32,000 nt of DNA, from NCBI GenBank assembly GCA_001761425.1, contig CP012986.1:330001-362000 (forward strand). The letters run 5' to 3'. Source of the stretch: Candidatus Saccharimonadota bacterium. GTDB lineage: Archaea; Nanohalarchaeota; Nanosalinia; Nanosalinales; Nanosalinaceae. Shown here one piece after another: positions 1 through 32,000 of this stretch. Position numbers and translations under genes: made by a program. Position 1 is the first letter of the stretch. Every line of letters begins with the position of its first letter. The notes beneath the pieces were generated by a model. It did not search any database. It was not told the DNA's origin and saw only the letters and a program-made list of their open reading frames with translations.

Positions 1-119
1 GGATAGCTGTCAACATCTACCCTTCCCAGAGAAAGAGACAGGAGATCAAGGCCTCGAATGTCGAAGCGGACAGGTTCCAAGATGTCACAGAGCAAATCCT
101 TAACATGACCCTCCGGTGA
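1..119 (+). CDS. C-terminal fragment of an upstream gene, product unknown
   Basis: Frame 3 is open from the window edge to TGA at 117-119 (...IAVNIYPSQRKRQEIKASNVEADRFQDVTEQILNMTLR*). It is absent from the ORF track because it has no start in the window. No family recognised. Confidence 0.3.
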   Translation, partial: IAVNIYPSQRKRQEIKASNVEADRFQDVTEQILNMTLR

Positions 120-128
120 AGAATAAAC

Positions 129-1049
129 ATGAAAGAAGAGATCATCGAAAGAGCCTCAGAACTGGCGGATCTGGCGCCGAGACAGCTCGAAAACGAAAGA
201 AAAGCAGCAGACTTGATCGAAAAAGAGGTAGAGGCCTTTGGTCCAGAGATTCAGAGATTCCAGATCCTGGTACCGGATTTCCAGGACTGGGGTCTGAAAG
301 CTGATGGCGAGGAGATCGAATGCCTTCCTTCAGGCCTTGAATCAGGGAAGATAAGGTCCAAAGCTCTTGTGAACTCTATACTGAACGGTCAGGGTTCGAT
401 GAACAGGCCTAACATCAGTTTCAATCCTTATGCGGAAGGTATCTCGGTTCCAAATTTCTACGAGGCTCCTTCCGTCGCTATTAGTCCTGAAGACGTTGAG
501 AAAGTGGTTGAGGCGAACGAGGTCGAAGGATATCTTGAGGTCGAATGGGAGAGCCACCAGTCCAGGAATATACTGGTCGGGAACTCTGAGGATCCTGACA
601 GGATAGTCATGACCCATTACGACAGTGTATGGGGAGGATTCATCGACAACGGCTTCACAGTCAGTCTTCTTATCCAGCTGCTGGATGAACTCGATCTGGA
701 AGAAAACCTGATTGTCTTTGCCGGAGCGGAGGAGATCTCACAGGAAAGCCCGTACCACTGCTACGGATACAGAAGATTCGAGGACGAATACATCAAACAG
801 ATCCAGGAAGCGGACGAAATCTTCCTCGCCGACTCGCTAGGCAGAAACACCCAGAAAGTCATAAAGCAACCAGAAATAGTGGAAAAAGCCATAGTCCTCA
901 ACAGGCCTGGCTACAGGGAAAAAGTCAGGTTCGTCGCTTCAGAGTACCACGAAGTCCTCGACATCTATCACTCACCGGAAGACACGAAACAGGCCCTAAA
1001 CAGCTACGAAGAAGCACTCGAACTCGTCAGAAAAGAACTAGGCCTCTGA
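129..1049 (+). CDS. M28-family metallo-aminopeptidase-like protein
   Basis: 306-aa ORF. Motifs occur in M28 order: MTHYDSVWGGFIDNGFTV (HxD...DNxxG), FAGAEEISQES (EE pair), and YHSPEDT near the C-terminus. Call is from motif recognition only. Confidence 0.5.
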   Translation: MKEEIIERASELADLAPRQLENERKAADLIEKEVEAFGPEIQRFQILVPDFQDWGLKADGEEIECLPSGLESGKIRSKALVNSILNGQGSMNRPNISFNPYAEGISVPNFYEAPSVAISPEDVEKVVEANEVEGYLEVEWESHQSRNILVGNSEDPDRIVMTHYDSVWGGFIDNGFTVSLLIQLLDELDLEENLIVFAGAEEISQESPYHCYGYRRFEDEYIKQIQEADEIFLADSLGRNTQKVIKQPEIVEKAIVLNRPGYREKVRFVASEYHEVLDIYHSPEDTKQALNSYEEALELVRKELGL

Positions 1050-1405
1050 ACCTCGCCCCAGAAACAGTTTTAAATTTTCTATTCCAGTTTCCTCCTATGG
1101 CTCAGAAGGGGGGATATTTTTGGAAGAATCTTTCCCGAAAAGAAAACGTTGACCGGGCAACAGGCCTCAAAGCCTGATGAAAATAATTCTTTGAGCCACA
1201 GCTTTCTCCAGATCTCTTCTGTAAGAAACGTTTCATGGCAGAGCTATCAATAAACGTTTCTACGGTTCAAGAATACTTCAATTGTTCTCAAAAGTTTTCC
1301 AGCTCCTGCTATATCGACTTGAAGGCCTGAAAGGCCCTTATGTTATTTAAAATTTTCTGACGTATATGTTGATGTGATCAAAGATGAGCACATCCGCTAA
1401 TTTGG

Positions 1406-3588: not shown

Positions 3589-3598
3589 AATCTTCAGT

Positions 3599-4708: not shown

Positions 4709-4710
4709 GG

Positions 4711-4733
4711 AGGCCTTAAACAGTTAAAGGCCT
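4711..4733. repeat. Inverted repeat built from two AGGCCT copies (AGGCCTTAAAC-A-GTTAAAGGCCT)
   Basis: 11-nt arms with one mismatch, starting 3 nt after the trpS stop (TAG 4706-4708) and 20-42 nt upstream of ATG 4753. Confidence 0.5.
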
Positions 4734-4752
4734 CTGTAACAATTTTTTCTTT

Positions 4753-5568: not shown

Positions 5569-6297
5569 CTAGAAAGCTGTCTGGTTTGGATACGTCACTA
5601 TACCGTTGTTTGTAATCTTCAGTGGGTGTATGTCTGACGAGTGGTCCGTACGGCGCATCTTGAAGACTTCCAGGGTTCTTGTTCTGGAGGATTCGGTTCT
5701 TTCATTTCCCAGGAGCAGGACTCCGTCAGCCACGAACTCTACGATCTGGTACTTTGATACCTGGCGCTCTCCGCCGGTGTAGGGGATCTCGGCCAGCAGG
5801 CATGCCGTACATTCCTGTTCTCTCAAAAACTGGGCGATCTCTGAAACCTTCTCTCTTCTGAGAGGTGAGGAATCGAAGACCATCGCAAACTTGGTGATAG
5901 AGTCAAGAACAACTCTGTCAGGTTCATACTGCTCGATCTGTCTCTTGAAAGCATCGATGAACCTGTCAGGCTCGAATACATCTCCTCCAGAACCTTCACG
6001 CATCAGGTTAAGCTCCTCGTGAAACTTCACGTTGCCAGCGACTCCCTCATCGTTCTCAAAGTCCATGTCAAAGTTCTTGCTTGTCTCAACGATGTTTCTG
6101 GCCGGCTCCTCCAGTGTAAAGTATATTCCTTTATCGTCATGATTCTTCGCGCCGTTATAGAGGAACTGGGTGGTCAAAGTAGTTTTACCTGCTCCAGACG
6201 TCCCGCTGACAACTATAGTATGTTCTTCAGGGATTCCACCGTTCAAAATCTGGTCGAGGCCTTGAACACCGGTCTTACATCTTGGGACTTCTGGCAT
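5569..6297 (-). CDS. KaiC/RecA-like single-domain ATPase (COG0467-type), canonical motifs
   Basis: GVQGLDQILNGGIPEEHTIVVSGTSGAGKTTLTTQFLYNGA (Walker A GxxGxGKT), RVVLDSITKF (Walker B), FKMRRTDHSSDIHPLKITNNGIVTY tail. Confidence 0.8.
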   Translation of the reverse strand: MPEVPRCKTGVQGLDQILNGGIPEEHTIVVSGTSGAGKTTLTTQFLYNGAKNHDDKGIYFTLEEPARNIVETSKNFDMDFENDEGVAGNVKFHEELNLMREGSGGDVFEPDRFIDAFKRQIEQYEPDRVVLDSITKFAMVFDSSPLRREKVSEIAQFLREQECTACLLAEIPYTGGERQVSKYQIVEFVADGVLLLGNERTESSRTRTLEVFKMRRTDHSSDIHPLKITNNGIVTYPNQTAF

Positions 6298-6405
6298 GTA
6301 TAACCCATGTCGTGTCTAAACTATTAAAGCTGGCCTCAAGACCAGGGAGGTTAGATATTATAAACAGCTGAATATCATTAATTCACATAGAGGTAAATCA
6401 AAAAC

Positions 6406-7098
6406 ATGGCAGGCGACAGAGTAAGCACAGGAGTTGAAGGCCTTGACGGGGCCATGGAAGGAGGTTTTCCCGCAAACTCTACAGTAATTCTAATGGGTTC
6501 TGACGGCACAGGAAAGGAATCGCTTGTCAACAAGTTCGTGTATCAAGGCCTTGAGGAAGGAGAGGAATCGATGTATGTCACTCTTGACGGTTCTCCTGAT
6601 GATGTAAAGGATGATGCAGATTACTACGGATGGGATTTCACAGACCACGACGACAGAATCGTATTCGTAGACGGCTACTCCTGGCAGGCAGGGGGAAGCG
6701 ATGAACAGTTCGCACTCGACGGTCTCTCGGACCTTAACCAGATGAACATGACATTTACAGACGCTTTGAACGCGCTTGGAAATGAGTCCAAACGTGTGGC
6801 CATCCATTCGGCTTCCACACTACTTCTCTATACAGATCCGAAATCCGCTGTAAAGTTCCTTCAGGTTGTCGGTGCGAAGAGTTCAAGCTCTGGTGGTTGC
6901 CTGGTAATCACTCTGGAAGAAGGGATGCACGATGAGAAGACAGTTAACACAATAAAACACGTTGCAGATGGAGTGATCAAGACCAAGCTGGATGGAGACG
7001 ACAAAAAACTTTCAATACAGAGGATGGACAAGACAGACACCAGCAGAGACTGGAAAGACTTCGAAGTAGATGATTCAGGAGACATAACAGTTTCTTAG
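6406..7098 (+). CDS. KaiC/RecA-like domain protein with degenerate Walker A and B (probable pseudo-ATPase)
   Basis: GVEGLDGAMEGGFPANSTVILMGSDGTGKESLVNKFVYQGL has Glu in place of the Walker A Ser/Thr (GKE). RVAIHSAST has His where the Walker B Asp is expected. A KaiC-like tail is present (SIQRMDKTDTSRDWKDFEVDDSGDITV). Confidence 0.7.
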   Translation: MAGDRVSTGVEGLDGAMEGGFPANSTVILMGSDGTGKESLVNKFVYQGLEEGEESMYVTLDGSPDDVKDDADYYGWDFTDHDDRIVFVDGYSWQAGGSDEQFALDGLSDLNQMNMTFTDALNALGNESKRVAIHSASTLLLYTDPKSAVKFLQVVGAKSSSSGGCLVITLEEGMHDEKTVNTIKHVADGVIKTKLDGDDKKLSIQRMDKTDTSRDWKDFEVDDSGDITVS

Positions 7099-7203
7099 GA
7101 AAAGAAAGAAGTAAAGAATCTTCTGGACAGTTTAAGCAGCTTTTTCAGGCCTTTTACAGGCGTTACTAAGGTTAAAAATTCTTTCTGTTTGTTTTGAAGT
7201 AGA

Positions 7204-7211
7204 TTTATAAA
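7204..7211 (+). promoter_or_regulatory. TATA-like box (TTTATAAA) for the KaiC-like/GTPase fusion gene
   Basis: Centre lies about 27 nt upstream of ATG 7234 with no purine-rich SD between, consistent with a leaderless archaeal mRNA. Confidence 0.45.
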
Positions 7212-7233
7212 CCAGAGAAACTTAGTTGTGATT

Positions 7234-8397
7234 ATGTCTAAGGTTAAGCTGCCACTTGAGAGACTTAATGAGGCCCTGGATGGAGGAGTAGAGGAAGGTT
7301 CCAACGTTCTTATACTAGCAGATCTGGCTGTAGACAAGTCAAAGTTCGCTTCTGCACTTGTTAACTACAGGCTAGATGAAGATGACAACCTGGTCTACTT
7401 CGTTAACAACAGGATGCCACAGTATATCAATGAGAGGATAGATAGTGAAAGAGCTGACGGTGAGACAGCTGTAATCGATGGATTCTCTTCAACACTGAAT
7501 AAAGAGTCAGAGGAAAGATTCAAGATCGATAAGGATCTCAAGGCAGACAGATCAGAATACCTCCAAGAATCCAAGGAAACAACAAAAGAGGCCTTGGAGG
7601 AGCTGGAGGACTGGGGAACAACCTACGTAATGGATTCTCTGGACACGTTCGCAGGTCAGTGGGAAGAAGTAGAGGACTTCGTAGACGAAATAGGTCCTGT
7701 AGCAGAAGATACTCTGGCAGTAAACTACTACTTCCTTCCAAACCTCGGATTCGAGGAAGACGACGATATAGAAAGACTGAAAGAAATATTCGACTACGTA
7801 ATACATCTCAAAGGCCTTGAAAGGTCGGGAATCGTACTAAAGTATATCGATATCAGAAAACCGGATATTGAGACAAAAGTTCCTTTCGACATCACACCGG
7901 AAGGCCTTGTCATGTATGTGCCTAAGATGCTTGTAACCGGGCCTTACGATGCAGGAAAATCTACCACTGTACAGAATATGTCTGAGGAGGCAGTATCTGT
8001 GGACAGACTTGGAACCACTGTCTCTCTGGATCATGGACAGGTCGAGAGAAATGGCCTGAAAGCTGAACTGTTCGGTACACCCGGCCAGAAACGTTTCGAC
8101 TGGGCGCTTGATTTCCTCGGCAGAAGCATCTTCGGATGTTTCATTGTAGTGGATTCCAGGGATCCTAACTATGAGAGAGTCCGGAAGCTGAAAGAGGATC
8201 TGGAGGCTGAGGAGTTACCGTTCATCATACTTGCCAACTTCCAGAACAAGGATGATGCCCTGTCTCCTGATGAAATCCAGGACGAGCTGAGTATCAAAAC
8301 AGTCGGAATCGATGCCAAACACGATGAAGGCCTTGATCAGGCACTCCAGTCGCTTATGGAGGAAATCCTGAGCAGGCATTCGTGGTATTACACATAG
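7234..8397 (+). CDS. Fusion protein: degenerate KaiC-like domain plus MglA/CvnD-type (COG2229-like) small GTPase
   Basis: N-terminal ~230 aa have a KaiC-like layout (LNEALDGGVEEGSNVLILADLAVDKSKF, TYVMDSLDTF, LKYIDIRKPD...FDITPEGLVMY) but no GK[ST]. The C-terminal ~155 aa (from ATG 7927) form a GTPase with G1 GPYDAGKST, G3 FGTPGQ (Thr instead of Asp, as in MglA-type GTPases) and G4 NKDD. ATG 7234 preferred over GTG 7228. Confidence 0.7.
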   Translation: MSKVKLPLERLNEALDGGVEEGSNVLILADLAVDKSKFASALVNYRLDEDDNLVYFVNNRMPQYINERIDSERADGETAVIDGFSSTLNKESEERFKIDKDLKADRSEYLQESKETTKEALEELEDWGTTYVMDSLDTFAGQWEEVEDFVDEIGPVAEDTLAVNYYFLPNLGFEEDDDIERLKEIFDYVIHLKGLERSGIVLKYIDIRKPDIETKVPFDITPEGLVMYVPKMLVTGPYDAGKSTTVQNMSEEAVSVDRLGTTVSLDHGQVERNGLKAELFGTPGQKRFDWALDFLGRSIFGCFIVVDSRDPNYERVRKLKEDLEAEELPFIILANFQNKDDALSPDEIQDELSIKTVGIDAKHDEGLDQALQSLMEEILSRHSWYYT

Positions 8398-8451
8398 GTG
8401 GGAAAAATGAAACTCTTTAAAAAATATCAAGACCTAATACAGGTATAGAAC

Positions 8452-8817
8452 ATGTCAAGTAAAGAGGAAAAGTTAAATGAGCCGTTGGATGATCTGGACA
8501 GTGTCCAGGGGATTAAAGGAGCTGCTGTTGTCAGAAGAGATGGTTTACTGATCGCATCAAATCTTGGCCAGGACATTGATGATGATCAGGTTGGTGCGAT
8601 GACAGCATCCACGGTAGGATCAGGAGAAACCGCCAGCGAAGCATTAAGCATGGGAGATGTTGATCAGGTTACTGTAGAATCAGACAACGGCAAACTCATT
8701 GCTACAGGTGCAGGAGACGAAGGAATACTCGCAATACTAACAGAAAGCGACGTCAACATGGGCCTTATCAAGGTTGAAATGAGCGACGCAGTGGACAAAG
8801 TCAAAAAAGTCCTGTAA
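8452..8817 (+). CDS. Roadblock/LC7 (MglB-like) domain protein
   Basis: 121 aa. GIKGAAVVRRDGLLIASNL...GAMTASTVGSGE...VTVESDNGKLIATGAGDEGILAILTE fits the Roadblock/LC7 pattern. Lies directly downstream of the GTPase gene. Confidence 0.8.
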   Translation: MSSKEEKLNEPLDDLDSVQGIKGAAVVRRDGLLIASNLGQDIDDDQVGAMTASTVGSGETASEALSMGDVDQVTVESDNGKLIATGAGDEGILAILTESDVNMGLIKVEMSDAVDKVKKVL

Positions 8818-12229: not shown

Positions 12230-12772
12230 ATGGCAAACGAGTTCTTCGGAAGACTGATGGACACCGGCGAATTCAGGTTCAATGAAAATGGGATTCTATT
12301 CTACTTCGGAGCACCAACAATGCTCTTCAACATTAATACTATGGTTTCGCTTCAGAAAGACCTAGAAGAAAAAAATGTAGCGGAGGAATCCCTCAAAAAA
12401 GTCGGAGGAAACCAATCAAGAAGAGCCCTGAAACGATACGAGGACAGATATAACTTCGATGAACTCAGCAGAAACGAGATAATGAAGTTCATAGACGATC
12501 TCACAGATGTAATCGCGCTCGGCGAATTCACAATAAGCAAGATGGACCAGAAAGAGGATATAGTATACGCCATAGAGAACAGGACCAATCCAATCGCCAG
12601 AGTCTACAGAAAAGAATATGGGGAAGCAGATTCACCAAGAGATTTCTTCCTCCAAGGCCTGATAGAGAAAGGCCTTGACGCACTTGAAAGTAAAGATCTT
12701 GAAGTAGAAGAAAAAGAATGCATGGCCAAGGGAGACGACAGATGCCTCTTTGTAGCAAGACCTAAAGACTGA
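12230..12772 (+). CDS. V4R (4-vinyl reductase-type) small-molecule-binding domain protein
   Basis: 180 aa. The C-terminal FFLQGLIEKGLDALESKDLEVEEKECMAKGDDRCLFVARPKD carries the paired-Cys V4R signature (C-x-A-x-GD-x-x-C-x-F). Starts 10 nt after the PaaK-like gene. Confidence 0.6.
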   Translation: MANEFFGRLMDTGEFRFNENGILFYFGAPTMLFNINTMVSLQKDLEEKNVAEESLKKVGGNQSRRALKRYEDRYNFDELSRNEIMKFIDDLTDVIALGEFTISKMDQKEDIVYAIENRTNPIARVYRKEYGEADSPRDFFLQGLIEKGLDALESKDLEVEEKECMAKGDDRCLFVARPKD

Positions 12773-13445
12773 GGCCTTTCTCAGGCTCCTTTACCTTAAG
12801 ACCGTTTTCATCTATCTCGACAGGATATACATCGTGCTCAAAGTTCGTCCTCCTCATCTTCTGGACTGTAAGCTTTCTGCCCATGTCTCCGCCAAAGCCG
12901 AGGCCTTTCATGATAAATACTCCGTCCACCACGTACTCTTCGACTCCATAACGAGTCAGGTTATCTTCATCAGGCTTCTCAGTAGTGAACAAAGTAGTAA
13001 CTTCTTCGCCCTTCATCTGCTTGATGATCTCGTAAAGCTCCTTTCTCACCTCTCCAGGAGCATTAGAATCCAGCCCCATACCGATCATGGAAACAGGGTC
13101 TATAACCACTCTGTCCGGGTTATGCTCGTTAATATATCCCCGCACATTGCTATCAAAGGTGAAGTCCTCTGTGAACGGATTGATGTACTCTATGGAAAAT
13201 CTTTCCTCATCCCTAAAACTCCAGCCGAACTCGTCTGCATCGCCAAGAATATCCTCCTCGTCCTCTTCCAAAGTAATGAAAAGACATCTCTCCCCTTTCT
13301 GAAGACCTTCCCACAGGAACTGACTCGAAAAAATAGTTTTACCCATTCCAGCACTACCGGAAATCAGAATAGTAGAGCCTTCAGGCACTCCTCCTTCAAT
13401 CAGTTCATCAAGGCCCTCCACGCCTGTAGAAATTCTCTCAGTCAT
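12762..13445 (-). CDS. KaiC/RecA-like single-domain ATPase, canonical motifs
   Basis: GVEGLDELIEGGVPEGSTILISGSAGMGKTIFSSQFLWEGL (Walker A), RVVIDPVSMIG (Walker B), VQKMRRTNFEHDVYPVEIDENGLKV. ATG 13445 preferred over TTG 13454. The 3' end overlaps the V4R gene's 3' end by 11 nt. Confidence 0.8.
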   Translation of the reverse strand: MTERISTGVEGLDELIEGGVPEGSTILISGSAGMGKTIFSSQFLWEGLQKGERCLFITLEEDEEDILGDADEFGWSFRDEERFSIEYINPFTEDFTFDSNVRGYINEHNPDRVVIDPVSMIGMGLDSNAPGEVRKELYEIIKQMKGEEVTTLFTTEKPDEDNLTRYGVEEYVVDGVFIMKGLGFGGDMGRKLTVQKMRRTNFEHDVYPVEIDENGLKVKEPEKGLSL

Positions 13446-13470
13446 AAGAAACAATTCCCTTTCCCTGAAT

Positions 13471-14941: not shown

Positions 14942-14989
14942 CGAAAAAAAGTTTCCCAAATGACCGAACCACAGAGGCGATTCAGTAAA

Positions 14990-16636
14990 ATGGCAACTCT
15001 AGAGATAGATAAAAGAGAATTCGACGAACTACTGGGAAAAAACCTGGATAAAGAAAAACTTATCCAAGAAGCCTCATTCCTGGGAGCACACTGGCACAGC
15101 ATAAACGGAAACGTATGTGAAGTCGAGACATACCCGAACAGGCCCGACCTACTGAGCGTTGAAGGCCTCGCACGAGCTTACAGAGGATTTTTCGACATAA
15201 AAAACGGGCGGACAGAATACAATGTAGAGAAAGGCCATGTCCAGGTCAAAGTAGATGAAAGCGTCGAAGATGTAAGGCCTCACATCGGAGGAGCGGTAGT
15301 CCGAGGCCTTGAACTTTCAGAGAAAAAGATCAACGGCCTGATCCAGCTTCAGGAGAAGATGCACGAGACCATGGGCCGCAGGAGAGATAAACTGGCTATA
15401 GGCCTTCATGATCTTTCTACTGTCGAGGCTCCGTTCACATACAGGGCTGTGGAACCTGAAAAAGTTTCCTTTACTCCGCTGGAGTATGACAGGGATATGC
15501 AGCTGGGAGAGATTCTTGAGGAACACGGTAAAGGTCAGGACTATGCCTGGATTCTCGAAGATGAGGACAGATATCCTGTAATCGAAGATGCGGAAGGAAA
15601 AGTGCTGAGTTTCCCGCCTATCATCAACAACCAGTTGACAGAGGTAGATTCCGGGACTCAGGACGTTTTCATAGACGTGACGGGGAAAGATGAGGATACA
15701 GTTTTGAAGGCCTTGAACATCTTGACGACGGCTCTTGCTGAGAGAGGTGGCGAGATCGAGTCAGTAAATGTTGATGGCGAAAAGCTTCCCGATCTCTCCC
15801 CTGAAAAATTCAGTCTTGATCCCGAATACTTCAGAGAGGTTTCAGGCCTTGATCTGGAGAGGAAAGAGATTATGAAGCGTCTGGAGATGATGAAATACGA
15901 TGCAAAAGCGGAAGAGAATATACAGGTTGAGGTTCCGTGTTACAGGAACGACGTGATGCATCAGTACGACTTGATAGAAGATATCATCATCGCTCACAGA
16001 TACACAAATATAGAACCTGAGATACCGAACGTAGACCTGATCGGTTCTCAGAGAGACATCGAGGATACGGCAGAAGTAGTCCGGGACATATTGTCTGAAG
16101 CCGGTGCTATGGAAGCTCTGACCTATATCCACAATAGCAGAGATAACCTGACAGAAAAAATATGCAGAGAAGAAACCAACTTTGTCAAAGTCGATAACCC
16201 GCTGTCCGAAGACTACTCGGCACTGAGAGATATGATAACTCCTTCTCTGCTCGAAGTACTGAAGCAGAACAAGCACAGGGCCTATCCACAGGAATTCTTC
16301 GAAACAGGTACGGTTACAGAACTTGACGACTCCTATACAGGAGCCTCAAACCGGAAAAAAACAGCATACATCAAGTCAGGAAGCAACGTAGACTTCACAG
16401 ATGCCAGAGAAAAGCTCCAGATCCTGGAAAGAGATCTAGGCCTTGAAATAGAGGTCGAAGCGGATGAAAGGCCTTTCTTCCAGGATTCAAGGGCTGGAAA
16501 GATACTTCTGGACGGTGAAGAAATCGGTTTTATCGGCCAGTTCTCTGAAGAAGTCCTCGAGAACTGGAAGCTAGGTCATCCTACAGCAGGATTTGAACTT
16601 GATCTGGAGAAGGTTCAGGAAAAACTGAGAAAATAA
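14990..16636 (+). CDS. pheT: Phenylalanine--tRNA ligase beta subunit (archaeal)
   Basis: MATLEIDKREFDELLGK..., ETYPNRPDLLSVEGLARAY, PHIGGAVVRGL, VLSFPPIINN, RNDVMHQYDLIEDIIIAHRY; directly follows pheS. ATG 14990 preferred; in-frame ATG 14960 is possible. Confidence 0.9.
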   Translation: MATLEIDKREFDELLGKNLDKEKLIQEASFLGAHWHSINGNVCEVETYPNRPDLLSVEGLARAYRGFFDIKNGRTEYNVEKGHVQVKVDESVEDVRPHIGGAVVRGLELSEKKINGLIQLQEKMHETMGRRRDKLAIGLHDLSTVEAPFTYRAVEPEKVSFTPLEYDRDMQLGEILEEHGKGQDYAWILEDEDRYPVIEDAEGKVLSFPPIINNQLTEVDSGTQDVFIDVTGKDEDTVLKALNILTTALAERGGEIESVNVDGEKLPDLSPEKFSLDPEYFREVSGLDLERKEIMKRLEMMKYDAKAEENIQVEVPCYRNDVMHQYDLIEDIIIAHRYTNIEPEIPNVDLIGSQRDIEDTAEVVRDILSEAGAMEALTYIHNSRDNLTEKICREETNFVKVDNPLSEDYSALRDMITPSLLEVLKQNKHRAYPQEFFETGTVTELDDSYTGASNRKKTAYIKSGSNVDFTDAREKLQILERDLGLEIEVEADERPFFQDSRAGKILLDGEEIGFIGQFSEEVLENWKLGHPTAGFELDLEKVQEKLRK

Positions 16637-16699
16637 GATGTGTTTGAAGGCCTTGATGATGAACCCTGCGGGACCAAACTCATCCAGAGAGTTTGATTC

Positions 16700-16734
16700 G
16701 CACGAAGCTTGGATAAGCTCGTGCCACTCCTTTT
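16700..16734 (+). terminator. Hairpin plus T4 in the pheT/PspC convergent spacer
   Basis: GCACGAAGCTT-GGAT-AAGCTCGTGC (10 bp with one bulge, 16700-16724) followed by TTTT at 16731-16734, 64 nt after the pheT stop. Confidence 0.3.
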
Positions 16735-16773
16735 GACATGGGTTTGAATTTTGAGTGCTGAGAGGCCTTCGAA

Positions 16774-17097: not shown

Positions 17098-17138
17098 AAA
17101 AAAGATTTCAAGGCCTTTAAAGGTCTTTTTCGAGGCCT
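17098..17138 (-). terminator. Hairpin-capable AGGCCT pair followed by U6 downstream of ndk
   Basis: AGGCCT at 17133-17138 and 17111-17116 are self-complementary. 17111-17126 (AGGCCTTTAAAGGTCT) is a near-perfect 16-nt palindrome. A6 at 17098-17103 reads as U6 on the ndk strand, 19-60 nt past the stop. Confidence 0.4.
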
Positions 17139-18276: not shown

Positions 18277-20145
18277 ATGCAGCTGGGAACTATTGAAGGC
18301 GAGGTCGATACCTCCTCGTTCGAATTTCGGGCCACAGAAGAAGTAAGAAAATTCGATTTCGTATCCGTCAAGAGCAGTGACAAATGGATACTCGCACAGG
18401 TAGAAGAAGTCACCAAACACCCGGATGGAGAAACTCTGGCCAGGGCCAACATCATTGGATACAGGGATAAAGGCCTGACAAAGGCTCCGAGAAGAGTCAT
18501 AGAACCAGATTCAATAGTCTATCAGGCCGACCAGGAGCTGATCTCAGAGACTCTAGGCCTACAGGATAAAGGCCTTCAGGTCGGTAATCTTGAGACTAAC
18601 GAGGATATAGATATCCATGTTAATGCTGATCAGTTCTACAAGCACTTCGCAGTTTTAGCTCAGACCGGTGCCGGTAAATCATACTTGACCGGAGTTTTGA
18701 TCGAGGAGCTTCTTGAGCAGGATATGCCTGTGATGATCTTGGATCCTCACGGCGAGTTCTCATCTCTCAGGAATCCGAACCCGGAGAAAGAGGACGGAGA
18801 GACCAGAGGATATAATCTGAAGGAGTATTCGCCCAATACAGATATTAACTCGGAGGCGATGCCTCTGCAGTTTTCCTCCAAGAATCTCGGGAAAAAGGAA
18901 CTGATGACACTGATTCCTGATTCCCTGACTAACTCACAGATGGGTGTTCTCTATAATTCGCTGAAGAGGCTGAAGGAGAAGGAAGAGGACTACAGTCTAC
19001 TTGATATCGAGGACGCGGTGTCTCAGGAGGACTCGACCGCGAAATGGAACCTTCTGAACTACCTGGAGCAGCTTGAGGAATCAGGCCTCTTTGATCCGGA
19101 TCCTGTCGATCTAACAGATCTTCTTGAGCCTGGACAGGCCACGGTCATCAATTTGAAAGCGGTTGAACCGGATGCAGCGGAGATGACTGCCTACATGCTG
19201 GCGAAAAAACTTTTCGATCTCAGAAAGAAGGATATGGTTCCGCCGTTCCTGATGGTGATGGAGGAGGCCCATAACTTTGTACCGGAGAAAGGCTTCGGAC
19301 AGGCAGTATCAAACCCGATCCTCAGAAAGATCGCATCTGAAGGAAGAAAGTTCGGTCTAGGCCTCGGCGTTATCTCTCAGAGACCTGCGAGAATCGATAA
19401 AAACGTACTCAGCCAGTGTAACACCCAGTTTATCCTGAGGGTTACAAACCCAAATGACCTGAAAGCAATTTCCAAGTCCTTCGAGGGAATAACTTCTGAA
19501 GTCGAGGACATGATTAAATCCCTGCCTCCAGGAGTCTCCTTTGTCCTTGGAAACGATTACCCTGTTATGACAGATGTGAGGCAGAGAAAGAGCCAGCACG
19601 GCGGGGAAACTCAGACTGCGGAGACATACGTCGAGAAAGAGAATATCGAGGCCTTCAAACCGCAGAGAGAGCTCAGCGAGGTCAAACATGAGATTGGAGA
19701 AGATCTCTCAGAGGCCTGGTATCCGCTGTATCTTGTCGAGAACCTGGAGAAAAAAATTCTCATCGACGGTGTGAAAGATCAGACTAAGGCGGAGAAGCCG
19801 AAGGTTGAAGGCCAGGACAGGAAAATCCTGGATCTAATCAAGGAGGGAAGATCGAAGAGCGAGATAGTGGACGAAACCGGCCTTCAGGTCTCAAAGATAG
19901 CCTCCAAAATGTCCGAACTCCAGGATAAAGGCCTTATCGATGAGAACAATGAAGTTGAGGAGACAATTTTCGATGCAGGTCTAGATGATCAGGTTGTGAA
20001 GGAAGAGACCCTGATAGAGTACGAGGTCGATAAGGAAGAGGCCGGATCTCGGCTTCCGGATTCTTCGGTTTCGAGAGTTTATTATCCATACTTCTCGGAT
20101 CAGGATACTGTATACGATCCTGTGCTGGAGAAAAAGGTAGGTTGA
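18277..20145 (+). CDS. HerA/DUF87-family (FtsK-HerA superfamily) ATPase with C-terminal HTH-like extension
   Basis: N-terminal barrel-like region (GTIEGEVDTSSFEFRATEE...VSVK), Walker A AVLAQTGAGKSY, ILDPHGEF, Walker B FLMVMEEAHNF, SEGRKFGLGLGVISQRP. The extra ~150 aa include RKILDLIKEGRSKSEIVDETGLQVSKIASKMSELQDKGLI. Confidence 0.75.
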   Translation: MQLGTIEGEVDTSSFEFRATEEVRKFDFVSVKSSDKWILAQVEEVTKHPDGETLARANIIGYRDKGLTKAPRRVIEPDSIVYQADQELISETLGLQDKGLQVGNLETNEDIDIHVNADQFYKHFAVLAQTGAGKSYLTGVLIEELLEQDMPVMILDPHGEFSSLRNPNPEKEDGETRGYNLKEYSPNTDINSEAMPLQFSSKNLGKKELMTLIPDSLTNSQMGVLYNSLKRLKEKEEDYSLLDIEDAVSQEDSTAKWNLLNYLEQLEESGLFDPDPVDLTDLLEPGQATVINLKAVEPDAAEMTAYMLAKKLFDLRKKDMVPPFLMVMEEAHNFVPEKGFGQAVSNPILRKIASEGRKFGLGLGVISQRPARIDKNVLSQCNTQFILRVTNPNDLKAISKSFEGITSEVEDMIKSLPPGVSFVLGNDYPVMTDVRQRKSQHGGETQTAETYVEKENIEAFKPQRELSEVKHEIGEDLSEAWYPLYLVENLEKKILIDGVKDQTKAEKPKVEGQDRKILDLIKEGRSKSEIVDETGLQVSKIASKMSELQDKGLIDENNEVEETIFDAGLDDQVVKEETLIEYEVDKEEAGSRLPDSSVSRVYYPYFSDQDTVYDPVLEKKVG

Positions 20146-20219: not shown

Positions 20220-20347
20220 GGGTCCGTGGTCTAGTTGGTTATGACGTCGCCCTTACAACCGCATCGTGTGCAAAGCATATCTGCTTGAATCACACGCGGA
20301 GCGAGTGAGTAAGGCGAAGATCCCCAGTTCGAATCTGGGCGGACCCA
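20220..20347 (+). tRNA. tRNA-Val (anticodon UAC) with a 54-nt intron at the canonical 37/38 position; CCA not encoded
   Basis: Hand-folded cloverleaf. Acceptor GGGTCCG (20220-20226) pairs with CGGACCC (20340-20346), discriminator A 20347. D arm GTCT/AGTTGGTTA/TGAC. Anticodon stem TCGCC (20247-20251) pairs with GGCGA (20313-20317), loop CTTACA|A with TAC at 20254-20256. T arm CCCAG-TTCGAAT-CTGGG. Intron spans 20258-20311. Confidence 0.8.
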
Positions 20348-20440
20348 TACAAGCGACATTTCAAAGGCCTTGTTGTTACCGAAAGGTATTAAATACTGGA
20401 GGTATAATTTAGTGTTGCGAGAAATCTTACATTTTAAACC

Positions 20441-20809
20441 ATGAGAACCCAAGTTATGACTGTGTCCCAACATAAACAAGCTATTGTCCTGAGAACAGAT
20501 CTAGGTATGTCTACAGGTAAACTTATATCCCAGGCCTGTCATGCGTCTCTCAAAGCCTACAGGAAGGCCTCTTCCGATGACCGGAGCAACTGGGAGTCCG
20601 GCGGTCAGAAGAAGGTTGTCCTCGATATTGGTGGTGAGGATCTGGAAGACTGTTTCAGGAAGGCTCAGAGACAGGGCTTGCCTTCGGCAATGGTGAAAGA
20701 TGCAGGTCTTACCGAGATTGAGCCTGGGACGAAGACGGCTGTGAGTGTTGGGCCGTGTGAGGAGTCCAAAATCGATAGTGTAACAGGCGATCTCAAGCTT
20801 CTGGATTAG
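20441..20809 (+). CDS. pth2: Peptidyl-tRNA hydrolase, archaeal type (Pth2)
   Basis: KQAIVLRTDLGMSTGKLISQACHASLKAY, QKKVVL, GLPSAMVKDAGLTEIEPGTKTAVSVGP. ATG 20456 is an alternative start. Confidence 0.85.
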   Translation: MRTQVMTVSQHKQAIVLRTDLGMSTGKLISQACHASLKAYRKASSDDRSNWESGGQKKVVLDIGGEDLEDCFRKAQRQGLPSAMVKDAGLTEIEPGTKTAVSVGPCEESKIDSVTGDLKLLD

Positions 20810-25649: not shown

Positions 25650-25831
25650 ATCAAAGATATAGAACTCCTTATCCTTAAAGCTGTTACCTAGGCCTTAAAC
25701 TAGAAACAGATACAGACCAGGCAACAACTGAAGGCCTACTATTCTTCCATCACTCATCTACCCAGGAATCAGTGATTCACGGCTTGACAGACAACGGAAA
25801 AACAGGATTCTCCTAGTGTTACCCCGCAGAG

Positions 25832-28994: not shown

Positions 28995-30287
28995 GTGACC
29001 CGTGAAGGCTACTCGTTTAAGGGACAGTCCTCCGTCGAATTTCTGCTTGTGGTAGGTATAGCTTTGAGTATCTCCACTCCCTTCCTATTGGCGGCCCAAC
29101 AATCAGTTATCGATTTGGAACAGACTTCAAGATCAGTCTCACTGGAGCAATCGCTTGATAAACTTGAACAAGCGGTAAAAACAGTGAGTGTTTCAGGAGA
29201 GCCGGCTAGAAGAACCTTCAACATGGATATACCGGATAACGTCTTGAAGGCACAGGTTGTACAGGGAAGAGGCGTTGTCTACACTATCAGGAACGGAGGA
29301 GGAGTATTCAACACTTCAAGGCTTTTCGAAACCAATATCTCGCTGCCCGAAGGCCTTCCGGAAGATCCTGGAAGGTCTAAAGTCTCAGTGTATGCATGGA
29401 ATGGCCAGGTGAATATCTCCAGACCAGGATTCAATTCAACTGAAAGTTCAACAGAGAGGCCTCTAAACCTAATCTTCTATTCAGGGGATAACGGAAACTT
29501 GAACTACTATAATATTGATAATGATTCCATAGAACAGGTCACAGATGAGTACGATGTGGAGGCTTTGGGGCCTCAAAGCCCTAATCTGGACGGAGATGAC
29601 CGGTATGAGATCGTATTCGGGGCAGACGGCAAGCTGTATATAACTGATTATACTGGGGAAGTACGGAACCTTGCAGAGAACAACAAGTATCAAGAGACGA
29701 AGTATGGTATCGGAGAAGACTCCTCAGATGCTATCTATTATCCAGGAGATCCCAACAACGGTTACGATGTATACAGGGTTTCAGTGGACTCAAGGGCTTC
29801 CCTTGTATCGAGGATAGGAGACGGTGTCAGCGCTCTCTCCGATGTCGACGATTTTGACGGTGATGGCAATGAGGAAATTATCTTTGTTGGAGGCTCACAA
29901 GTAATTCAGTACCTTAATGAAGACGGTTCTGTTGTCTCTACGGGAAGACAAGTAGGCTCAAATAACGGACTGGGTCTGGGAGCATCATATGACTTTAACG
30001 GTAACGGAAGGTCGAGGGTGGCGATAGTCGATAACAGCAATAATATCGCTTTGGTGAACAATCAGGGAGAGAAGGAGTTACTAACGGAGGATGGGGAAGC
30101 CAGCAAGACCAGTATCTCAGTTATAGATCTGGACGATGACGGAGACATGGAAATAGCTTACGTTCCAAAATCAGGTGATAGAGGAATTTACTATGTCGAT
30201 GACATCTTAGGTCAAAATCAGATAGCGGAGCTAAGTTCGGGGGCCAAACCGGCGACGGAAGTCGGGCTTACAGGTAGAATCCGGTAA
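28995..30287 (+). CDS. Class III signal-peptide (archaeal type IV pilin-like) protein with FG-GAP/VCBS-like beta-propeller repeats
   Basis: N-terminus MTREGYSFKGQSSVEFLLVVGIALSI (KGQ-S-x-EF plus hydrophobic helix). Repeats LDGDDRYEIVFGADGKLY, DFDGDGNEEIIFVGG, DFNGNGRSRVAIVD, DLDDDGDMEIAYV. The GTG start has ATTTTAA 26 nt upstream. Confidence 0.65.
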   Translation: MTREGYSFKGQSSVEFLLVVGIALSISTPFLLAAQQSVIDLEQTSRSVSLEQSLDKLEQAVKTVSVSGEPARRTFNMDIPDNVLKAQVVQGRGVVYTIRNGGGVFNTSRLFETNISLPEGLPEDPGRSKVSVYAWNGQVNISRPGFNSTESSTERPLNLIFYSGDNGNLNYYNIDNDSIEQVTDEYDVEALGPQSPNLDGDDRYEIVFGADGKLYITDYTGEVRNLAENNKYQETKYGIGEDSSDAIYYPGDPNNGYDVYRVSVDSRASLVSRIGDGVSALSDVDDFDGDGNEEIIFVGGSQVIQYLNEDGSVVSTGRQVGSNNGLGLGASYDFNGNGRSRVAIVDNSNNIALVNNQGEKELLTEDGEASKTSISVIDLDDDGDMEIAYVPKSGDRGIYYVDDILGQNQIAELSSGAKPATEVGLTGRIR

Positions 30288-30294
30288 AAGATTT

Positions 30295-30714
30295 ATGAGA
30301 AGGGCAAATAGTTCAGTAAAAGGTCAGACATCTATAGAATTCTTCCTGCTTTTTGGAATGGCTATGGCTATTATGACAGTCCTCTTCGCCGCTATACAAA
30401 CCAAAGAATCAGATGTGATGAGTCTTCAGAACCAGAAAACAGCAGCACAAATTGGTGAAAAAGTCGGTAAGCATGTCGAAAAAGCCTTGGCGGAGGGAAA
30501 AGGCTATTCACGGAAATTCCGCGTCCCGGACCGGATAGCCGGCAGCAAGTACAATCTGACTGTAACTAACAAGACCGTAGTTGTAAGGTGGGGCGGCGGC
30601 ATCGCTACAGCAGATACTATCTATTCAGGAGAGAAACTGAAACTTTCAACAAGGAGTACAAACCTGTACAAAGTGATACATGACGAAAAAGGTGTCAAAT
30701 TCGTTGAGAGATAA
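30295..30714 (+). CDS. Small class III signal-peptide pilin-like protein
   Basis: 139 aa. MRRANSSVKGQTSIEFFLLFGMAMAIMTVLFAAI matches the class III signal-peptide pattern. Starts 7 nt after the upstream gene. Confidence 0.6.
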   Translation: MRRANSSVKGQTSIEFFLLFGMAMAIMTVLFAAIQTKESDVMSLQNQKTAAQIGEKVGKHVEKALAEGKGYSRKFRVPDRIAGSKYNLTVTNKTVVVRWGGGIATADTIYSGEKLKLSTRSTNLYKVIHDEKGVKFVER

Positions 30715-32000
30715 AGGCCAGGCATTCCTGACTGATTTTGCTCTGAGCATGGCGATATTCGGGATAATCATCTCAGCGTTTTTCGTTCCCTGGAACATGA
30801 TGATCGAGACCGAAAACAGGTTCTCCCATTCCGACGATATGAAGGCTAAGGCAGAGAGAACGGTATCAATCATGGTCACCTCGCCAGGATATCCGGAAGA
30901 CTGGGAACAAAATCTCTCCGAGCCGGCTATCCTAGGATTATCTACGCAGAAAGAAAATGTAATCTCTATGGAAAAACTGGAGGCCTTTTCAAACCTCAGC
31001 AACGCACAAAAAACCTCCGTACTGAACTCAAGAGGATTTTCTCTCAACTTCAGATATCCTGAAAACTCGGAGGTCATAAAGTACAGTGACTCAGAAGTCC
31101 TGGGCACAGAATTTCTGGGAAAAGAGCCTATCGCATATATCGCACGAGGAGGCTCAACCTTCTCCTCGCTGGAGATGCTGGAAGAGTTAAACTCGTCCAC
31201 GAAGGAATGGTATTTCTACTTCCCTTCGGAGGAGAACCAGGATGATATAGACTCCCTGACAGCGGAGAAAACATATACTAACGAGGGATCTGGGCCCAAA
31301 ATGTTCCAGAGAATGATCAGTGACGCTGCCAACAGAGGATTCCAGAGGTTCAAGACAGGAAGTAAAATAAAGGCCTCTCTCTCGATCTCCGAAGTCTTTG
31401 AGGTTGACAACGATGGAAACAAGGGGATATTTTTCAGGGATCAGGACGGAAAACTGAAACTTCACAACCTTGAAAACAGCATGACAGAAGAGATAGATCC
31501 TGTAAACGAAGTTACCAGGATGGGAGCCGTCGAGAACTTCACCTCAGAGGAAGAAGAACTAGCTTTTATCAACGGAGACAGCAAATTAAATTTCTACAGT
31601 TTAGAAGACAACGAGGTCATAGAAACATCTATCGGGGCTGTAGACATCGGTGATTCTACCACTATTTCCGGTGACAAGGCCTTATTCTTCATAGATGACG
31701 ATAATTCTCTTTCATACTATATCAGAGGGAGAGGAAGTTTTGAGACATCTTTCAGCGGATCCAGGGTAGGAGGTGCTGGGGACATCGATGGAGACGACGT
31801 CTCCGAGATCGCGTTCCGGGATGAGGATGACAAACTCGCATTCTATGATCCCGAGACTGAGACGAAGCAGCCGACAGATCAAGGCGTTAAAGATGTAGGA
31901 TGGATCCATGAAAGATCTGTCGCAGTAGTCTCAGGCAACAACGAAAATCTGGGAGTCTGGAACTCTACGGACTCCTCATTTGAAAACTATCGGACAAAGG
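30692..32000 (+). CDS. Class III signal-peptide-like protein with propeller-type repeats (partial, runs off window)
   Basis: Not in the supplied ORF track because there is no stop in the window. By my reading the frame is open for ~1.3 kb from GTG 30692 (or TTG 30704) to the edge. N-terminus (M)SNSLRDKGQAFLTDFALSMAIFGIIISAFF. Repeats VDNDGNKGIFFRDQDGKLKL, LAFINGDSKLNFY, ALFFIDDDNSLSYY, DIDGDDVSEIAFRDEDDKLAFY. Confidence 0.55.
   Translation, partial: MSNSLRDKGQAFLTDFALSMAIFGIIISAFFVPWNMMIETENRFSHSDDMKAKAERTVSIMVTSPGYPEDWEQNLSEPAILGLSTQKENVISMEKLEAFSNLSNAQKTSVLNSRGFSLNFRYPENSEVIKYSDSEVLGTEFLGKEPIAYIARGGSTFSSLEMLEELNSSTKEWYFYFPSEENQDDIDSLTAEKTYTNEGSGPKMFQRMISDAANRGFQRFKTGSKIKASLSISEVFEVDNDGNKGIFFRDQDGKLKLHNLENSMTEEIDPVNEVTRMGAVENFTSEEEELAFINGDSKLNFYSLEDNEVIETSIGAVDIGDSTTISGDKALFFIDDDNSLSYYIRGRGSFETSFSGSRVGGAGDIDGDDVSEIAFRDEDDKLAFYDPETETKQPTDQGVKDVGWIHERSVAVVSGNNENLGVWNSTDSSFENYRTK

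Follow-up and report, generated by a model that had tools for sequence, protein, structure and literature searches.

The window, by which the whole analysed stretch of 32,000 nucleotides is meant, comes from a nanohaloarchaeon (DPANN, Nanohaloarchaeota), as expected from an earlier note made from the letters of the sequence, which had taken the DNA to be archaeal. Searches of its proteins with Pfam, PADLOC and NCBIfam returned housekeeping genes only. A Trp/Tyr-tRNA ligase gene, pheT, a convergent pspC-like gene, ndk and a gene for a conserved HerA-like ATPase lie here, and the palindrome AGGCCT is scattered over genes and spacers alike (Table 1).

Table 1. AGGCCT sites of the window and the features discussed in the text
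Feature	Position	Strand	Remarks
AGGCCT, 117 dispersed copies	1..32000	.	exact count; shuffles 8.1±2.8
AGGCCT starts	49, 232, 332, 405, 903, 1040, 1162, 1323, 1533, 1590, 1737, 1993, 2378, 2611, 2730, 3090, 3284, 3364, 3745, 3912, 4324, 4711, 4728, 4957		first lot
AGGCCT starts	5178, 5511, 5553, 6257, 6438, 6546, 7147, 7589, 7812, 7902, 8328, 8914, 9018, 9182, 9421, 9604, 10112, 10866, 11510, 11570, 12655, 12670, 12772, 12901		second lot
AGGCCT starts	13612, 13717, 13767, 13966, 14026, 14836, 15163, 15275, 15304, 15400, 15708, 15844, 16438, 16469, 16648, 16763, 16865, 17111, 17133, 17449, 17581, 17874, 18005, 18192		third lot
AGGCCT starts	18251, 18471, 18555, 18570, 19083, 19359, 19649, 19712, 19929, 20365, 20532, 20565, 21225, 21379, 21633, 21772, 22416, 22562, 23008, 23020, 23382, 23997, 24088, 24298		fourth lot
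AGGCCT starts	24587, 24635, 24710, 24815, 24862, 24920, 25690, 25732, 26144, 27095, 27116, 27305, 27397, 27915, 28580, 28946, 29351, 29457, 30981, 31371, 31677		fifth lot
Spacer just 3' of Trp/Tyr-tRNA ligase gene	4709..4752	+	AGGCCT pair 4711/4728 forms 9-bp hairpin stem, then T-run; fold -16 kcal/mol, z=-2.6
pheT (Phe-tRNA ligase beta subunit)	14960..16636	+	Pfam B3_4, B5, tRNA_synthFbeta; 8 AGGCCT sites, all three phases
Box C/D-like small non-coding element	16648..16768	+	between pheT and convergent pspC-like gene; AGGCCT pair 16648/16763 forms closing stem (12-bp, z=-2.75)
Spacer downstream of ndk	17111..17138	-	AGGCCT pair 17111/17133 can pair; 7-bp stem, z=-1.6, weak
Divergent spacer	25690..25737	.	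AGGCCT pair 25690/25732; no significant structure, z=-1.0

The machine count of 117 copies (3.66 per kb) is exactly the figure that had been reached by hand, and the sites are evenly distributed along the window (7-21 per 4 kb). The order 0 expectation is 6.65 copies, close to the earlier estimate of about 6, which gives an observed/expected ratio of 17.6; 8.0, 22.6 and 51.8 copies are expected at orders 1, 2 and 3, and a set of 100 dinucleotide-preserving shuffles gave a mean of 8.13 (sd 2.82, maximum 16). The Markov expectation of order 4 comes near to the observed number (103.9) because the pentamers AGGCC and GGCCT are nearly confined to the AGGCCT hexamer. AGGCCT is the top hexamer of the window, the runner-up among palindromic hexamers having 21 copies, and it is the only enriched palindrome of the form NGGCCN. 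The sister words are rare, as had been noted (GGGCCT 12, TGGCCT 10, CGGCCT 3, AGGCCC 9, AGGCCG 9 and AGGCCA 4 copies). The excess continues upstream (45 sites in 9.9 kb, with 2.2 expected) and downstream (28 sites in 8.3 kb, with 1.7 expected), and amounts genome-wide to approximately 15-18 times chance in genes and spacers. Thus, neither a count far below about 100 nor a lack of enrichment in the rest of the genome, the outcomes that the earlier note had regarded as fatal to its proposal, was observed.

The coding sequences contain 102 AGGCCT sites, while 500 per-gene shuffles of synonymous codons produced 16.8±3.7 and never more than 29 (z=22.8), so the third outcome regarded as fatal, a count reproduced by shuffling, was not seen either, and the earlier claim that the word is not a dipeptide or codon artefact holds. 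Among 148 synonymous opportunities 102 (69%) are realised, and 8 of 11 in pheT, where the three examples given earlier do represent phases 0, 1 and 2 from the start at 14960: AGG-CCT, encoding Arg-Pro (15275), xAG-GCC-Txx (15708) and xxA-GGC-CTx (15304). The spacers hold 16 sites with 0.26 expected (62-fold), including all eight cited earlier as intergenic (4711, 4728, 16648, 16763, 17111, 17133, 25690 and 25732), and AGGCCT is denser still there than in coding DNA, where about 70% of the opportunities are filled. AGGCCT is therefore a DNA-level word and no product of codon or peptide usage. The proteome itself is measurably shifted, with an excess of the dipeptides Gly-Leu (observed/expected 1.52 versus 1.13) and Arg-Pro (1.61 versus 1.25).

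Beyond the hexamer only a preference for R-AGGCCT-Y is seen. Within ±12 nt, base counts stand out from background only at -1 and +1, and the preferred flank varies by lineage, being A in the clade of the window and G in two other lineages (L011 and L014). The 8-mer AAGGCCTT, described earlier as about a quarter of the sites, accounts for 28 of 117 (24%), with 26 expected by an order-6 Markov model; a longer repeat unit or an 8-mer core was therefore rejected, independent flank preferences being sufficient. A dispersed repeat, MITE or REP element was likewise discarded, as no conserved sequence extends well beyond the core, and so was periodic or regular spacing, since the distances in the window are near exponential (CV 0.92, KS p=0.52). 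That the word merely follows from the usage of codons, dipeptides or amino acids, or from a mobile element or longer dispersed repeat, might be suggested by the predominance of phase 2 (X-Gly-Leu; 59 of the coding sites, against 16 and 27 in phases 0 and 1), but has practically no likelihood in view of the synonymous and codon-order shuffles, the presence of sites in all three phases, the spacer excess, the flanks lacking conservation beyond R/Y, and the occurrence of the same proteins in non-enriched relatives without the word.

The box C/D-like element is kept in relatives, its stem having another sequence in the non-enriched ones. An inversion bounded by AGGCCT, of a kind that might testify to cutting or recombination, was seen in a single case, at this small RNA element between pheT and the pspC-like gene, and is an anecdote.

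Roughly half of about 30 related nanohaloarchaeal loci are enriched in AGGCCT by 10-33 fold and the others are not, the density differing approximately 20-fold between enriched and non-enriched genomes. Two lineages (L003 and L013) with a weak, 3.5-fold enrichment look like cases of decay or of a weaker force. Lineages with and without the enrichment intermingle on the tree, which points to a dispensable, lineage-specific factor. Between the window and one enriched relative (L016), 118 of 161 sites are conserved, with 51 expected, and five other pairs gave similar values. Where the amino acid is conserved, codons are retained more often inside AGGCCT sites than outside: 86% versus 41% for GGC, 88% versus 48% for GCC, 88% versus 50% for AGG and 82% versus 60% for CCT. 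On these figures, AGGCCT is retained between genomes far better than its constituent codons elsewhere. A further lineage (L009) has only 5 GGCC where about 50 are expected. Where enriched genomes have AGGCCT, it shows 23 one-off variants, 11 of them AGACCT or AGGTCT, which is compatible with the decay of C-methylated sites. This tenfold avoidance suggests that GGCC-directed enzymes act in the phylum. It is of the classical restriction type, with which the AGGCCT enrichment shares a type II-like palindromic target (the StuI site) and variation between close relatives, which is brought about by lineage-specific enzymes in restriction avoidance, whereas the sign is opposite, AGGCCT being hugely over-represented.

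The best-known comparable element is HIP1 (GCGATCGC) of cyanobacteria, and the earlier description of AGGCCT as an archaeal HIP-like element holds for six of the seven defining features. It is a short palindrome and top hexamer with an observed/expected ratio above 15, dispersed as single copies outside any longer repeat or mobile element, more frequent than codon usage explains, in each of the three frames and in non-coding DNA alike, conserved beyond control words and constituent codons, and restricted to certain clades in a patchy manner, with related genomes lacking the enrichment. The seventh is a cognate methyltransferase; neither the window nor some 500 kb of related loci yielded one, which is one difference from HIP1. 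The excess lies in the range of HIP elements (observed/expected 15-300), among which hexamers are known as well, such as GGCGCC in Calothrix with a ratio of about 15 (Elhai 2015, PMC4390886; Xu et al. 2018, PMC5861425). Conservation of sites between genomes beyond codons has also been used as evidence for HIP1 (PMC5861425), and the same test is reproduced here. AGGCCT differs from HIP1 in its letters, in its length of six bases and in the organisms that carry it, which belong to another domain of life (DPANN archaea) and have genomes of only some 1 Mb. At 3.7 per kb it is also denser than HIP1, for which 0.3-2.7 per kb and a periodicity of 10-90 kb have been reported (PMC4390886, PMC5861425). 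A literature search, with subscription journals outside its scope, found no paper linking AGGCCT with nanohaloarchaea.

The choice of bases at fourfold-degenerate positions inside the word shows how it is favoured. In the context A|GGN|CT enriched genomes have A10 C268 G11 T25 and non-enriched ones A42 C23 G24 T39; in the context AG|GCN|T the counts are A4 C136 G1 T6 and A19 C7 G10 T17, respectively. C ousts A, G and T alike, and T, the product of deamination, is the least depleted. The one-off neighbours of AGGCCT are not specifically depleted: the transition neighbours AGGTCT/AGACCT and AGGCTT/AAGCCT stand at 0.76-0.79 of their frequency in non-enriched relatives, and the transversion neighbour AGCCCT/AGGGCT at 0.64 of the control frequency. 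As these base counts demonstrate, it is the six-base word as a whole on which the force acts, and intact AGGCCT is favoured over every one-base variant whatever the type of mutation.

These data bear directly on the drive proposed earlier, in which an AGGCCT cytosine methyltransferase and a T:G enzyme of the Vsr or Mig type convert T-containing near-sites. Such a system has its attractions, as AGGCCT is a classical type II target and transitions are the commonest of the 97 one-off differences between enriched genomes (AGACCT/AGGTCT 27, AGGCCC/GGGCCT 26, AAGCCT/AGGCTT 13). There is also an archaeal precedent, the plasmid pFV1 of Methanothermobacter, which carries the GGCC methyltransferase M.MthTI with the T/G glycosylase Mig.MthI; its target overlaps the GGCC core of AGGCCT and, like CCWGG of Dcm/Vsr in E. 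coli, is a palindromic methylation target that can be inflated by T:G repair restoring C. Both known systems, however, act on T:G mismatches only, with modest inflation and a depleted T-variant, while for AGGCCT all three other bases are displaced, A and G as strongly as T or more, so Vsr-type repair alone is insufficient. The depletion of deamination derivatives that the earlier note wished to have checked is slight, no lower than that of the transversion neighbour, and a T-to-C bias of this size cannot give a 20-fold excess, the estimated equilibrium excess being well under 2-fold. A pure drive of this type is thus very unlikely, and while the HIP-like nature of the element stands, this part of the earlier reading, as a sufficient cause, does not.

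The search for a driver covered the window and related loci amounting to about 500 kb. No m5C or N6/N4 methyltransferase motifs turned up there, nor was a Vsr/Mig-type enzyme, a nuclease or a candidate binding protein detected in these sequences. A homologue search with M.HaeIII, whose sequence had been verified against PDB 3UBT/1DCT, gave at least 120 matches, and those listed were all close bacterial relatives. The HerA-like ATPase occurs in enriched and non-enriched lineages alike and is therefore not the lineage-specific factor. No nanohaloarchaeal viruses came to light when IMG/VR was scanned at the protein level with PTH2 and the HerA-like ATPase. A three-site AGGCCT DNA pattern matched at least 120 IMG/VR sequences; the AGGCCT-dense ones among the matches listed were unrelated, comprising a 73-bp satellite containing TTAGGG (L137), tandem repeats within genes (L128, L131 and L142), and a GGCC-rich Firmicute-type prophage and another phage (L088 and L130).

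Preference for the intact word over all variants might also result from a self-recognition, uptake or recombination word that marks own-species DNA, like USS/DUS or Chi, for a system of DNA import, recombination or nuclease control. The archaeon would be a host-dependent scavenger of foreign DNA, and the word would be spread by selection or by a drive from biased uptake and recombination. USS of Pasteurellaceae and DUS of Neisseria likewise reach a density of roughly one site per kb or more, spacers as well as genes included, affect protein sequences and might accumulate by whole-word drive. They also form occasional inverted pairs behind genes; in the window, some spacer pairs may form hairpins after genes beside T-runs. 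The approximately 20-fold difference in density would be enough to discriminate kb-sized fragments, and according to recent preprints HIP1 is linked to transformation and horizontal transfer. This explanation is nevertheless unlikely: AGGCCT is a 6-bp palindrome with weak R/Y flanks, a weak discriminator per site, whereas known uptake sequences are non-palindromic words of 9-12 nt with demonstrated competence systems, and a literature search found nothing on competence or uptake specificity in nanohaloarchaea, for which we know of no comparable system. The HerA-like ATPase is of no help in separating the lineages, and the hairpin-forming pairs (4711/4728, 17111/17133 and 16648/16763; z -1.6 to -2.75) are only two or three, too few to generalise. 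A stronger version, which we offer as a speculation with little confidence, would make AGGCCT the self-DNA code of certain nanohaloarchaea, read by a lineage-specific import, recombination or nuclease-control system that spares or preferentially recombines own DNA; in function it would then be the archaeal counterpart of uptake sequences or Chi, and it would be spread by molecular drive and not by benefit per site.

Another possibility is that an abundant chromatin or nucleoid-organising protein binds AGGCCT, with density under direct selection, a role in chromosome architecture having been proposed for HIP1 on the basis of conservation beyond codon expectation (Xu et al. 2018, PMC5861425). 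AGGCCT is similarly conserved, and its dyad symmetry suits a dimeric binder. However, the spacing is random, presence and absence among close relatives would be unusual for a core nucleoid function, and about 3,700 sites per Mb under individual selection need a sizeable benefit per site, which makes this distinctly unlikely.

AGGCCT is a genome-wide, lineage-specific, HIP1-like palindrome in a subset of Nanohaloarchaeota, and the explanation we prefer, to which we give about an even chance, is that it is maintained by a dispensable system that recognises the word. It is kept by a force on the whole word, and we infer the mechanism as follows. The force would come from an AGGCCT-recognising system that is repeatedly gained and lost, the likeliest candidate being a StuI-type (AGGCCT) DNA methyltransferase coupled to repair or recombination. 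Changes destroying a modified intact site would be preferentially reversed, by loss suppression or by conversion biased to the intact allele; new sites would arise at the ordinary mutation rate, so that AGGCCT might pile up wherever protein selection permits, and T:G-only (Vsr/Mig-type) repair would be a minor contributor at most. To our knowledge, no methyl-directed repair system protecting its own recognition site locally has been documented, and against the methyltransferase-repair model stand the negative searches described above. The sole published nanohaloarchaeal methylome, that of Ca. Nanohalococcus occultus, gave GDGCHC and not AGGCCT, with m6A and m4C only being called in a genome that may or may not be AGGCCT-rich (PMC10266531). 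Selection on a functional word, moreover, would give the same sequence statistics as loss-suppressing repair.

HIP1 has been on record for some 30 years, and both its origin and its function are unsettled. The archaeal counterpart is a much easier system, because the genomes measure only some 1 Mb, a classical type II target is involved, and close lineages are strongly, weakly or not enriched or avoid GGCC. Such close relatives with and without enrichment make the cause testable, and the enzyme or binding protein responsible should emerge from simple profiles of gene presence and absence over the genomes already available. As several of these nanohaloarchaea have been brought into co-culture, tests of the methylome and of StuI protection are within reach. 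The finding also means that, in the streamlined genome of a symbiont, a word at the level of DNA can occupy about 70% of its synonymous opportunities and alter the usage of dipeptides. This saturation matters for codon-usage models, supplies metagenomic binning with a ready lineage signature, and bears on ideas of how DPANN cells that depend on a host distinguish their DNA from the host's.

The machine count over the whole 32,000-nt window (46.7% G+C) gave exactly 117 copies of AGGCCT, against expectations of 6.65 (base composition), 8.0 (first-order model), 22.6 (order 2) and 51.8 (order 3), and against 8.13±2.82 (maximum 16) in 100 dinucleotide-preserving shuffles. This is the figure that the earlier note had reached by hand (about 117, with about 6 expected), and its estimate that about a quarter of the sites extend to an 8-mer palindrome was borne out as well (28 of the 117, as AAGGCCTT). 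The order-4 expectation of 103.9 is no counter-argument, because the pentamers AGGCC and GGCCT are almost confined to the AGGCCT hexamer. AGGCCT is the top hexamer of the window, where the runner-up palindromic hexamers reach 21 copies. The sister words (GGGCCT 12, TGGCCT 10, CGGCCT 3, AGGCCC 9, AGGCCG 9 and AGGCCA 4) were found at the frequencies first estimated by eye, and the view that the signal is the full palindrome and not GGCC alone also stands: no other NGGCCN palindrome is enriched (GGGCCC and CGGCCG have one copy each). The inter-site spacing is near exponential (CV 0.92, KS p=0.52), and the flanks show a purine preceding and a pyrimidine following the word with no further conservation; AGGCCT therefore occurs as separate single words and not as part of a repeat.

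The gene map comprises 33 genes (about 94% coding), most of which were checked by Pfam. It places 102 sites inside genes (3.4 per kb), while the spacers, after addition of a tRNA and removal of one spurious ORF, contain 16 sites in 2,032 nt of 38% G+C, against 0.26 expected. All three codon phases are used: 16 coding sites read AGG-CCT (Arg-Pro), 27 xAG-GCC-Txx and 59 xxA-GGC-CTx (X-Gly-Leu), realising 62%, 54% and 82%, respectively, of the positions at which the encoded peptide permits the word by synonymous choice. In total, 102 of 148 such opportunities (69%) carry AGGCCT, and this saturation is much alike across nearly all genes, being lowest in the surface/pilin-like block at the end of the window. 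Synonymous-codon shuffling of each gene, with protein and codon usage held, gave only 16.8±3.7 copies (maximum 29 in 500 shuffles) and codon-order shuffling 8.6. The codon-preserving shuffle, named beforehand as a possible refutation, thus failed to reproduce the observed count, in agreement with the earlier claim that no codon or dipeptide artefact is involved; the three pheT phase examples and the eight spacer sites offered for that claim were all confirmed. An origin of AGGCCT as a coding or repeat artefact is hardly conceivable.

The same genome beyond the window is just as rich in the word. Flanks were taken from contigs that are 100% identical to the window at the nucleotide level (Ga0136257_100001, 1,125,078 bp; Logan, run SRR2630167), and contained 45 copies in 9.9 kb upstream (2.2 expected) and 28 in 8.3 kb downstream (1.7 expected), so that the enrichment holds in the rest of the genome as far as these flanks reach. 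Every relative of the pheT product belongs to the Nanohaloarchaeota, with the highest match (85% amino-acid identity) in a Ca. Nanohalobium MAG. Genes of the window code for aminoacyl-tRNA ligases, KaiC-like ATPases, a small GTPase with its Roadblock partner (an MglA/MglB-like pairing), a HerA-like ATPase, PTH2, TruD, a glycosyltransferase, PEP synthase and surface proteins. The HerA/FtsK-type ATPase matched the model of the DNA-translocating ATPase CedD weakly and far below threshold (87 bits; cut-off 600).

Coordinates of features in the window
Position	Strand	Feature	Remarks
5569-8817		Two KaiC/RadA-like ATPases, Ras/Arf-like small GTPase fused to DUF7504, Roadblock/LC7 protein	
12762-13454		Third KaiC/RadA-like ATPase	
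16637-16773	+	Conserved element of about 110 nt	Between pheT and convergent pspC-like gene
18277-20145	+	HerA/FtsK-type ATPase (DUF87) with C-terminal winged-helix domain	Adjoins pheST in all nanohaloarchaeal loci
20220-20347	+	tRNA, 128 nt	Rfam, 55 bits; presumably intron-containing; missed by ARAGORN
20231-20479	-	ORF	Spurious, because it overlaps the tRNA
28995-30287		Gene of the surface/pilin-like block	2 of 7 opportunities realised
28995-32000		Surface/pilin-like block: FG-GAP protein, DUF7266, 922-aa beta-propeller protein, two T2SSF platform proteins	Continues downstream in L153

About 30 syntenic loci from nanohaloarchaeal genomes and metagenomes were scored for AGGCCT. Strong enrichment (10-33 fold, with 2-5 sites per kb) was found in L016 and L002 (pheT identity 85%), L017, L018 and L027 (78-79%), L004 (75%), L020 (72%), L011 (Ca. 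Nanosalina VS9-1, 66%), L023 (65%), L008 (strain M3_22, 64%) and L014 (57%). Enrichment was weak (3.5 fold) in L003 and L013 and absent from L005 (75%), L006, L007, L010, L012, L015, L019, L021, L030 and two contigs resembling Nanohaloarchaeum antarcticus, L024 and L026. The pooled densities are 3.71 and 0.18 per kb for enriched and non-enriched loci. In a neighbour-joining tree of ten shared proteins, enriched lineages are scattered among non-enriched ones (L005, for example, is sister to the window and L002), and the trait has therefore been gained or lost several times, as would be expected if a lineage-specific factor that is dispensable and possibly mobile lay behind it. Deeply diverged enriched genomes have 35-60% of sites in common, which would fit inherited sites and an independent filling of the same permissive contexts equally well. 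One locus, L009 (JACOQA010000003.1, MAG_AT22), avoids GGCC throughout its 21.6 kb (AGGCCT 0; GGCC 5, about 50 expected), showing that GGCC-directed restriction pressure exists inside the phylum. Where enriched genomes have AGGCCT, 11 of its 23 one-off variants are AGACCT or AGGTCT, a pattern that deamination of once C-methylated sites would be expected to leave; the numbers are small. GGGCCC is near-absent from nanohaloarchaeal loci whether they are enriched or not (0-1 copies in each; observed/expected 0-0.3).

The conserved element downstream of pheT also occurs in L016, L020, L008, L013, L003 and L004 and, with the whole element flipped relative to the flanking genes, in L002, L017 and L018. 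Its ends carry box C-like (GAUGAUGA) and box D-like (CUGA) motifs (GAUGAUGAACCCUGCGGGAC...UUUUGAGUGCUGA), and Rfam gave sub-threshold matches to box C/D snoRNAs only. The closing stem consists of two AGGCCT copies in the window, L016 and L018, and is GAGGGCG/CGUCCUC-like in non-enriched relatives; in L018 two AGGCCT palindromes bound the inverted segment.

The earlier note had proposed, as one possibility, that a drive of methylation and very-short-patch (VSP) type repair might maintain the word. Cytosine deamination yields T, which is all that Vsr/Mig-type repair can act on. At fourfold-degenerate positions inside the word, A, G and T are all displaced by C, and T is the least depleted: the Gly codon in A|GGN|CT ends in A, C, G and T 10, 268, 11 and 25 times in enriched genomes (42, 23, 24 and 39 in non-enriched ones), and the Ala codon in AG|GCN|T 4, 136, 1 and 6 times (19, 7, 10 and 17). 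Nor are the one-base neighbours drained, as those at central positions still have 0.64-1.02 times the frequency seen in non-enriched genomes, and those at outer positions (NGGCCT) are up 1.7-7.7 fold. The two transition classes, the deamination derivatives for which the earlier note had suggested a test of depletion, lie within the central range (0.76-0.79). A T-to-C bias that agrees with these frequencies would, we estimate, lift the word well under twofold, so a VSP-type drive cannot be the main cause, and it is improbable that such a drive by itself makes the excess.

Comparison of the window with L016, at a third-codon-position identity of 67%, finds the site kept in 118 of 161 cases, where the rate for all hexamers in the same phases predicts 51. 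The excess is 2.3-3.8 fold in five more enriched pairs, and the sixth, L018 and L027, has too few sites to show one (6 of 12 kept, 6.0 expected). In a codon-retention control after Xu et al. 2018, limited to positions with unchanged amino acid, retention inside and outside sites was 86% and 41% for GGC, 88% and 48% for GCC, 88% and 50% for AGG, and 82% and 60% for CCT. Amino-acid composition is the same in both groups of genomes, and the dipeptides Gly-Leu (1.52 of expectation in enriched, 1.13 in non-enriched genomes) and Arg-Pro (1.61 and 1.25) show a shift. Together, the substitution, neighbour, retention and proteome results reveal a directional DNA-level pressure on the complete six-base word, which overrides codon preference and, marginally, protein sequence. 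Disfavour of all variants with high retention may be the product either of selection or of a repair, conversion or uptake bias for the intact word. Among the rival explanations, a self-recognition, uptake or recombination word ranks highest, although it is unlikely, and a nucleoid-protein binding site under selection is somewhat less likely again; the pure VSP drive and then the artefact follow.

AGGCCT is the target of StuI, and its GGCC core is a very common target of methylation and restriction. Because of this, and of the GGCC-directed pressure in L009, we infer that the agent is a dispensable system recognising AGGCCT. In the model that we prefer, a methyltransferase would mark the sites, and the destruction of marked sites would preferentially be reversed through repair or conversion, so that sites would be born at a normal rate, die rarely and build up wherever they are tolerated. 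The descriptive part of the finding is near-certain, its link to a putative methyltransferase is tentative and rather doubtful, and the combined statement of a HIP-like word with a methyltransferase-marked, loss-reversing model is, in our judgement, evenly poised. No DNA methyltransferase or nuclease gene was found among the window-encoded proteins, motif scans of about 500 kb of related loci did not reveal the driver, and a search for M.HaeIII homologues gave, among the matches listed, closest bacterial sequences only.

No virus of nanohaloarchaea turned up among the matches listed in scans of viral contigs. Two non-halophilic phage contigs were rich in GGCC-containing hexamers: L088 (IMGVR_UViG_2791354938_000002, 11.9 kb; AGGCCT 26, TGGCCA 11, AGGCCA 10), a prophage of siphovirus type with 52% identity between its terminase and those of Lactobacillus delbrueckii phages, and L130 (IMGVR_UViG_3300030392_001562), with AGGCCT as its top hexamer (22 copies). 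Thus, over-representation of the GGCC type also occurs outside archaea. The region 6700-8430 of L137 (IMGVR_UViG_2595698529_000001), a 291-kb 'viral' contig, is an unrelated 73-bp tandem satellite composed of TTAGGG telomere-like repeats and AGGCCTAGGCCT.

The closest known phenomenon is the highly iterated palindrome (HIP) class of cyanobacteria. All six of its defining features that were tested were found in AGGCCT, the seventh feature of the class being cognate methyltransferases, and this supports the proposal of an archaeal HIP-like word. AGGCCT is set apart by being another word, only six bases long, in another domain of life, and by its density, which at 3.7 per kb in the window lies above the 0.3-2.7 per kb of HIP1 (PMC4390886). 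In the nanohaloarchaeal methylome that has been published, GDGCHC is the only motif given; the SMRT data behind it were called for m6A and m4C alone (PMC10266531). SMRT sequencing does not pick up m5C. No paper linking AGGCCT and nanohaloarchaea came up in full-text literature searches, and the phenomenon is apparently unreported, with a small chance that it has been noted beyond the literature searched. What makes and maintains a HIP is an old question, for which AGGCCT offers a striking natural contrast: with enriched, weak, non-enriched and avoiding states among genomes of 1 Mb, the origin and upkeep of a HIP are directly testable by comparative genomics and methylome analysis.
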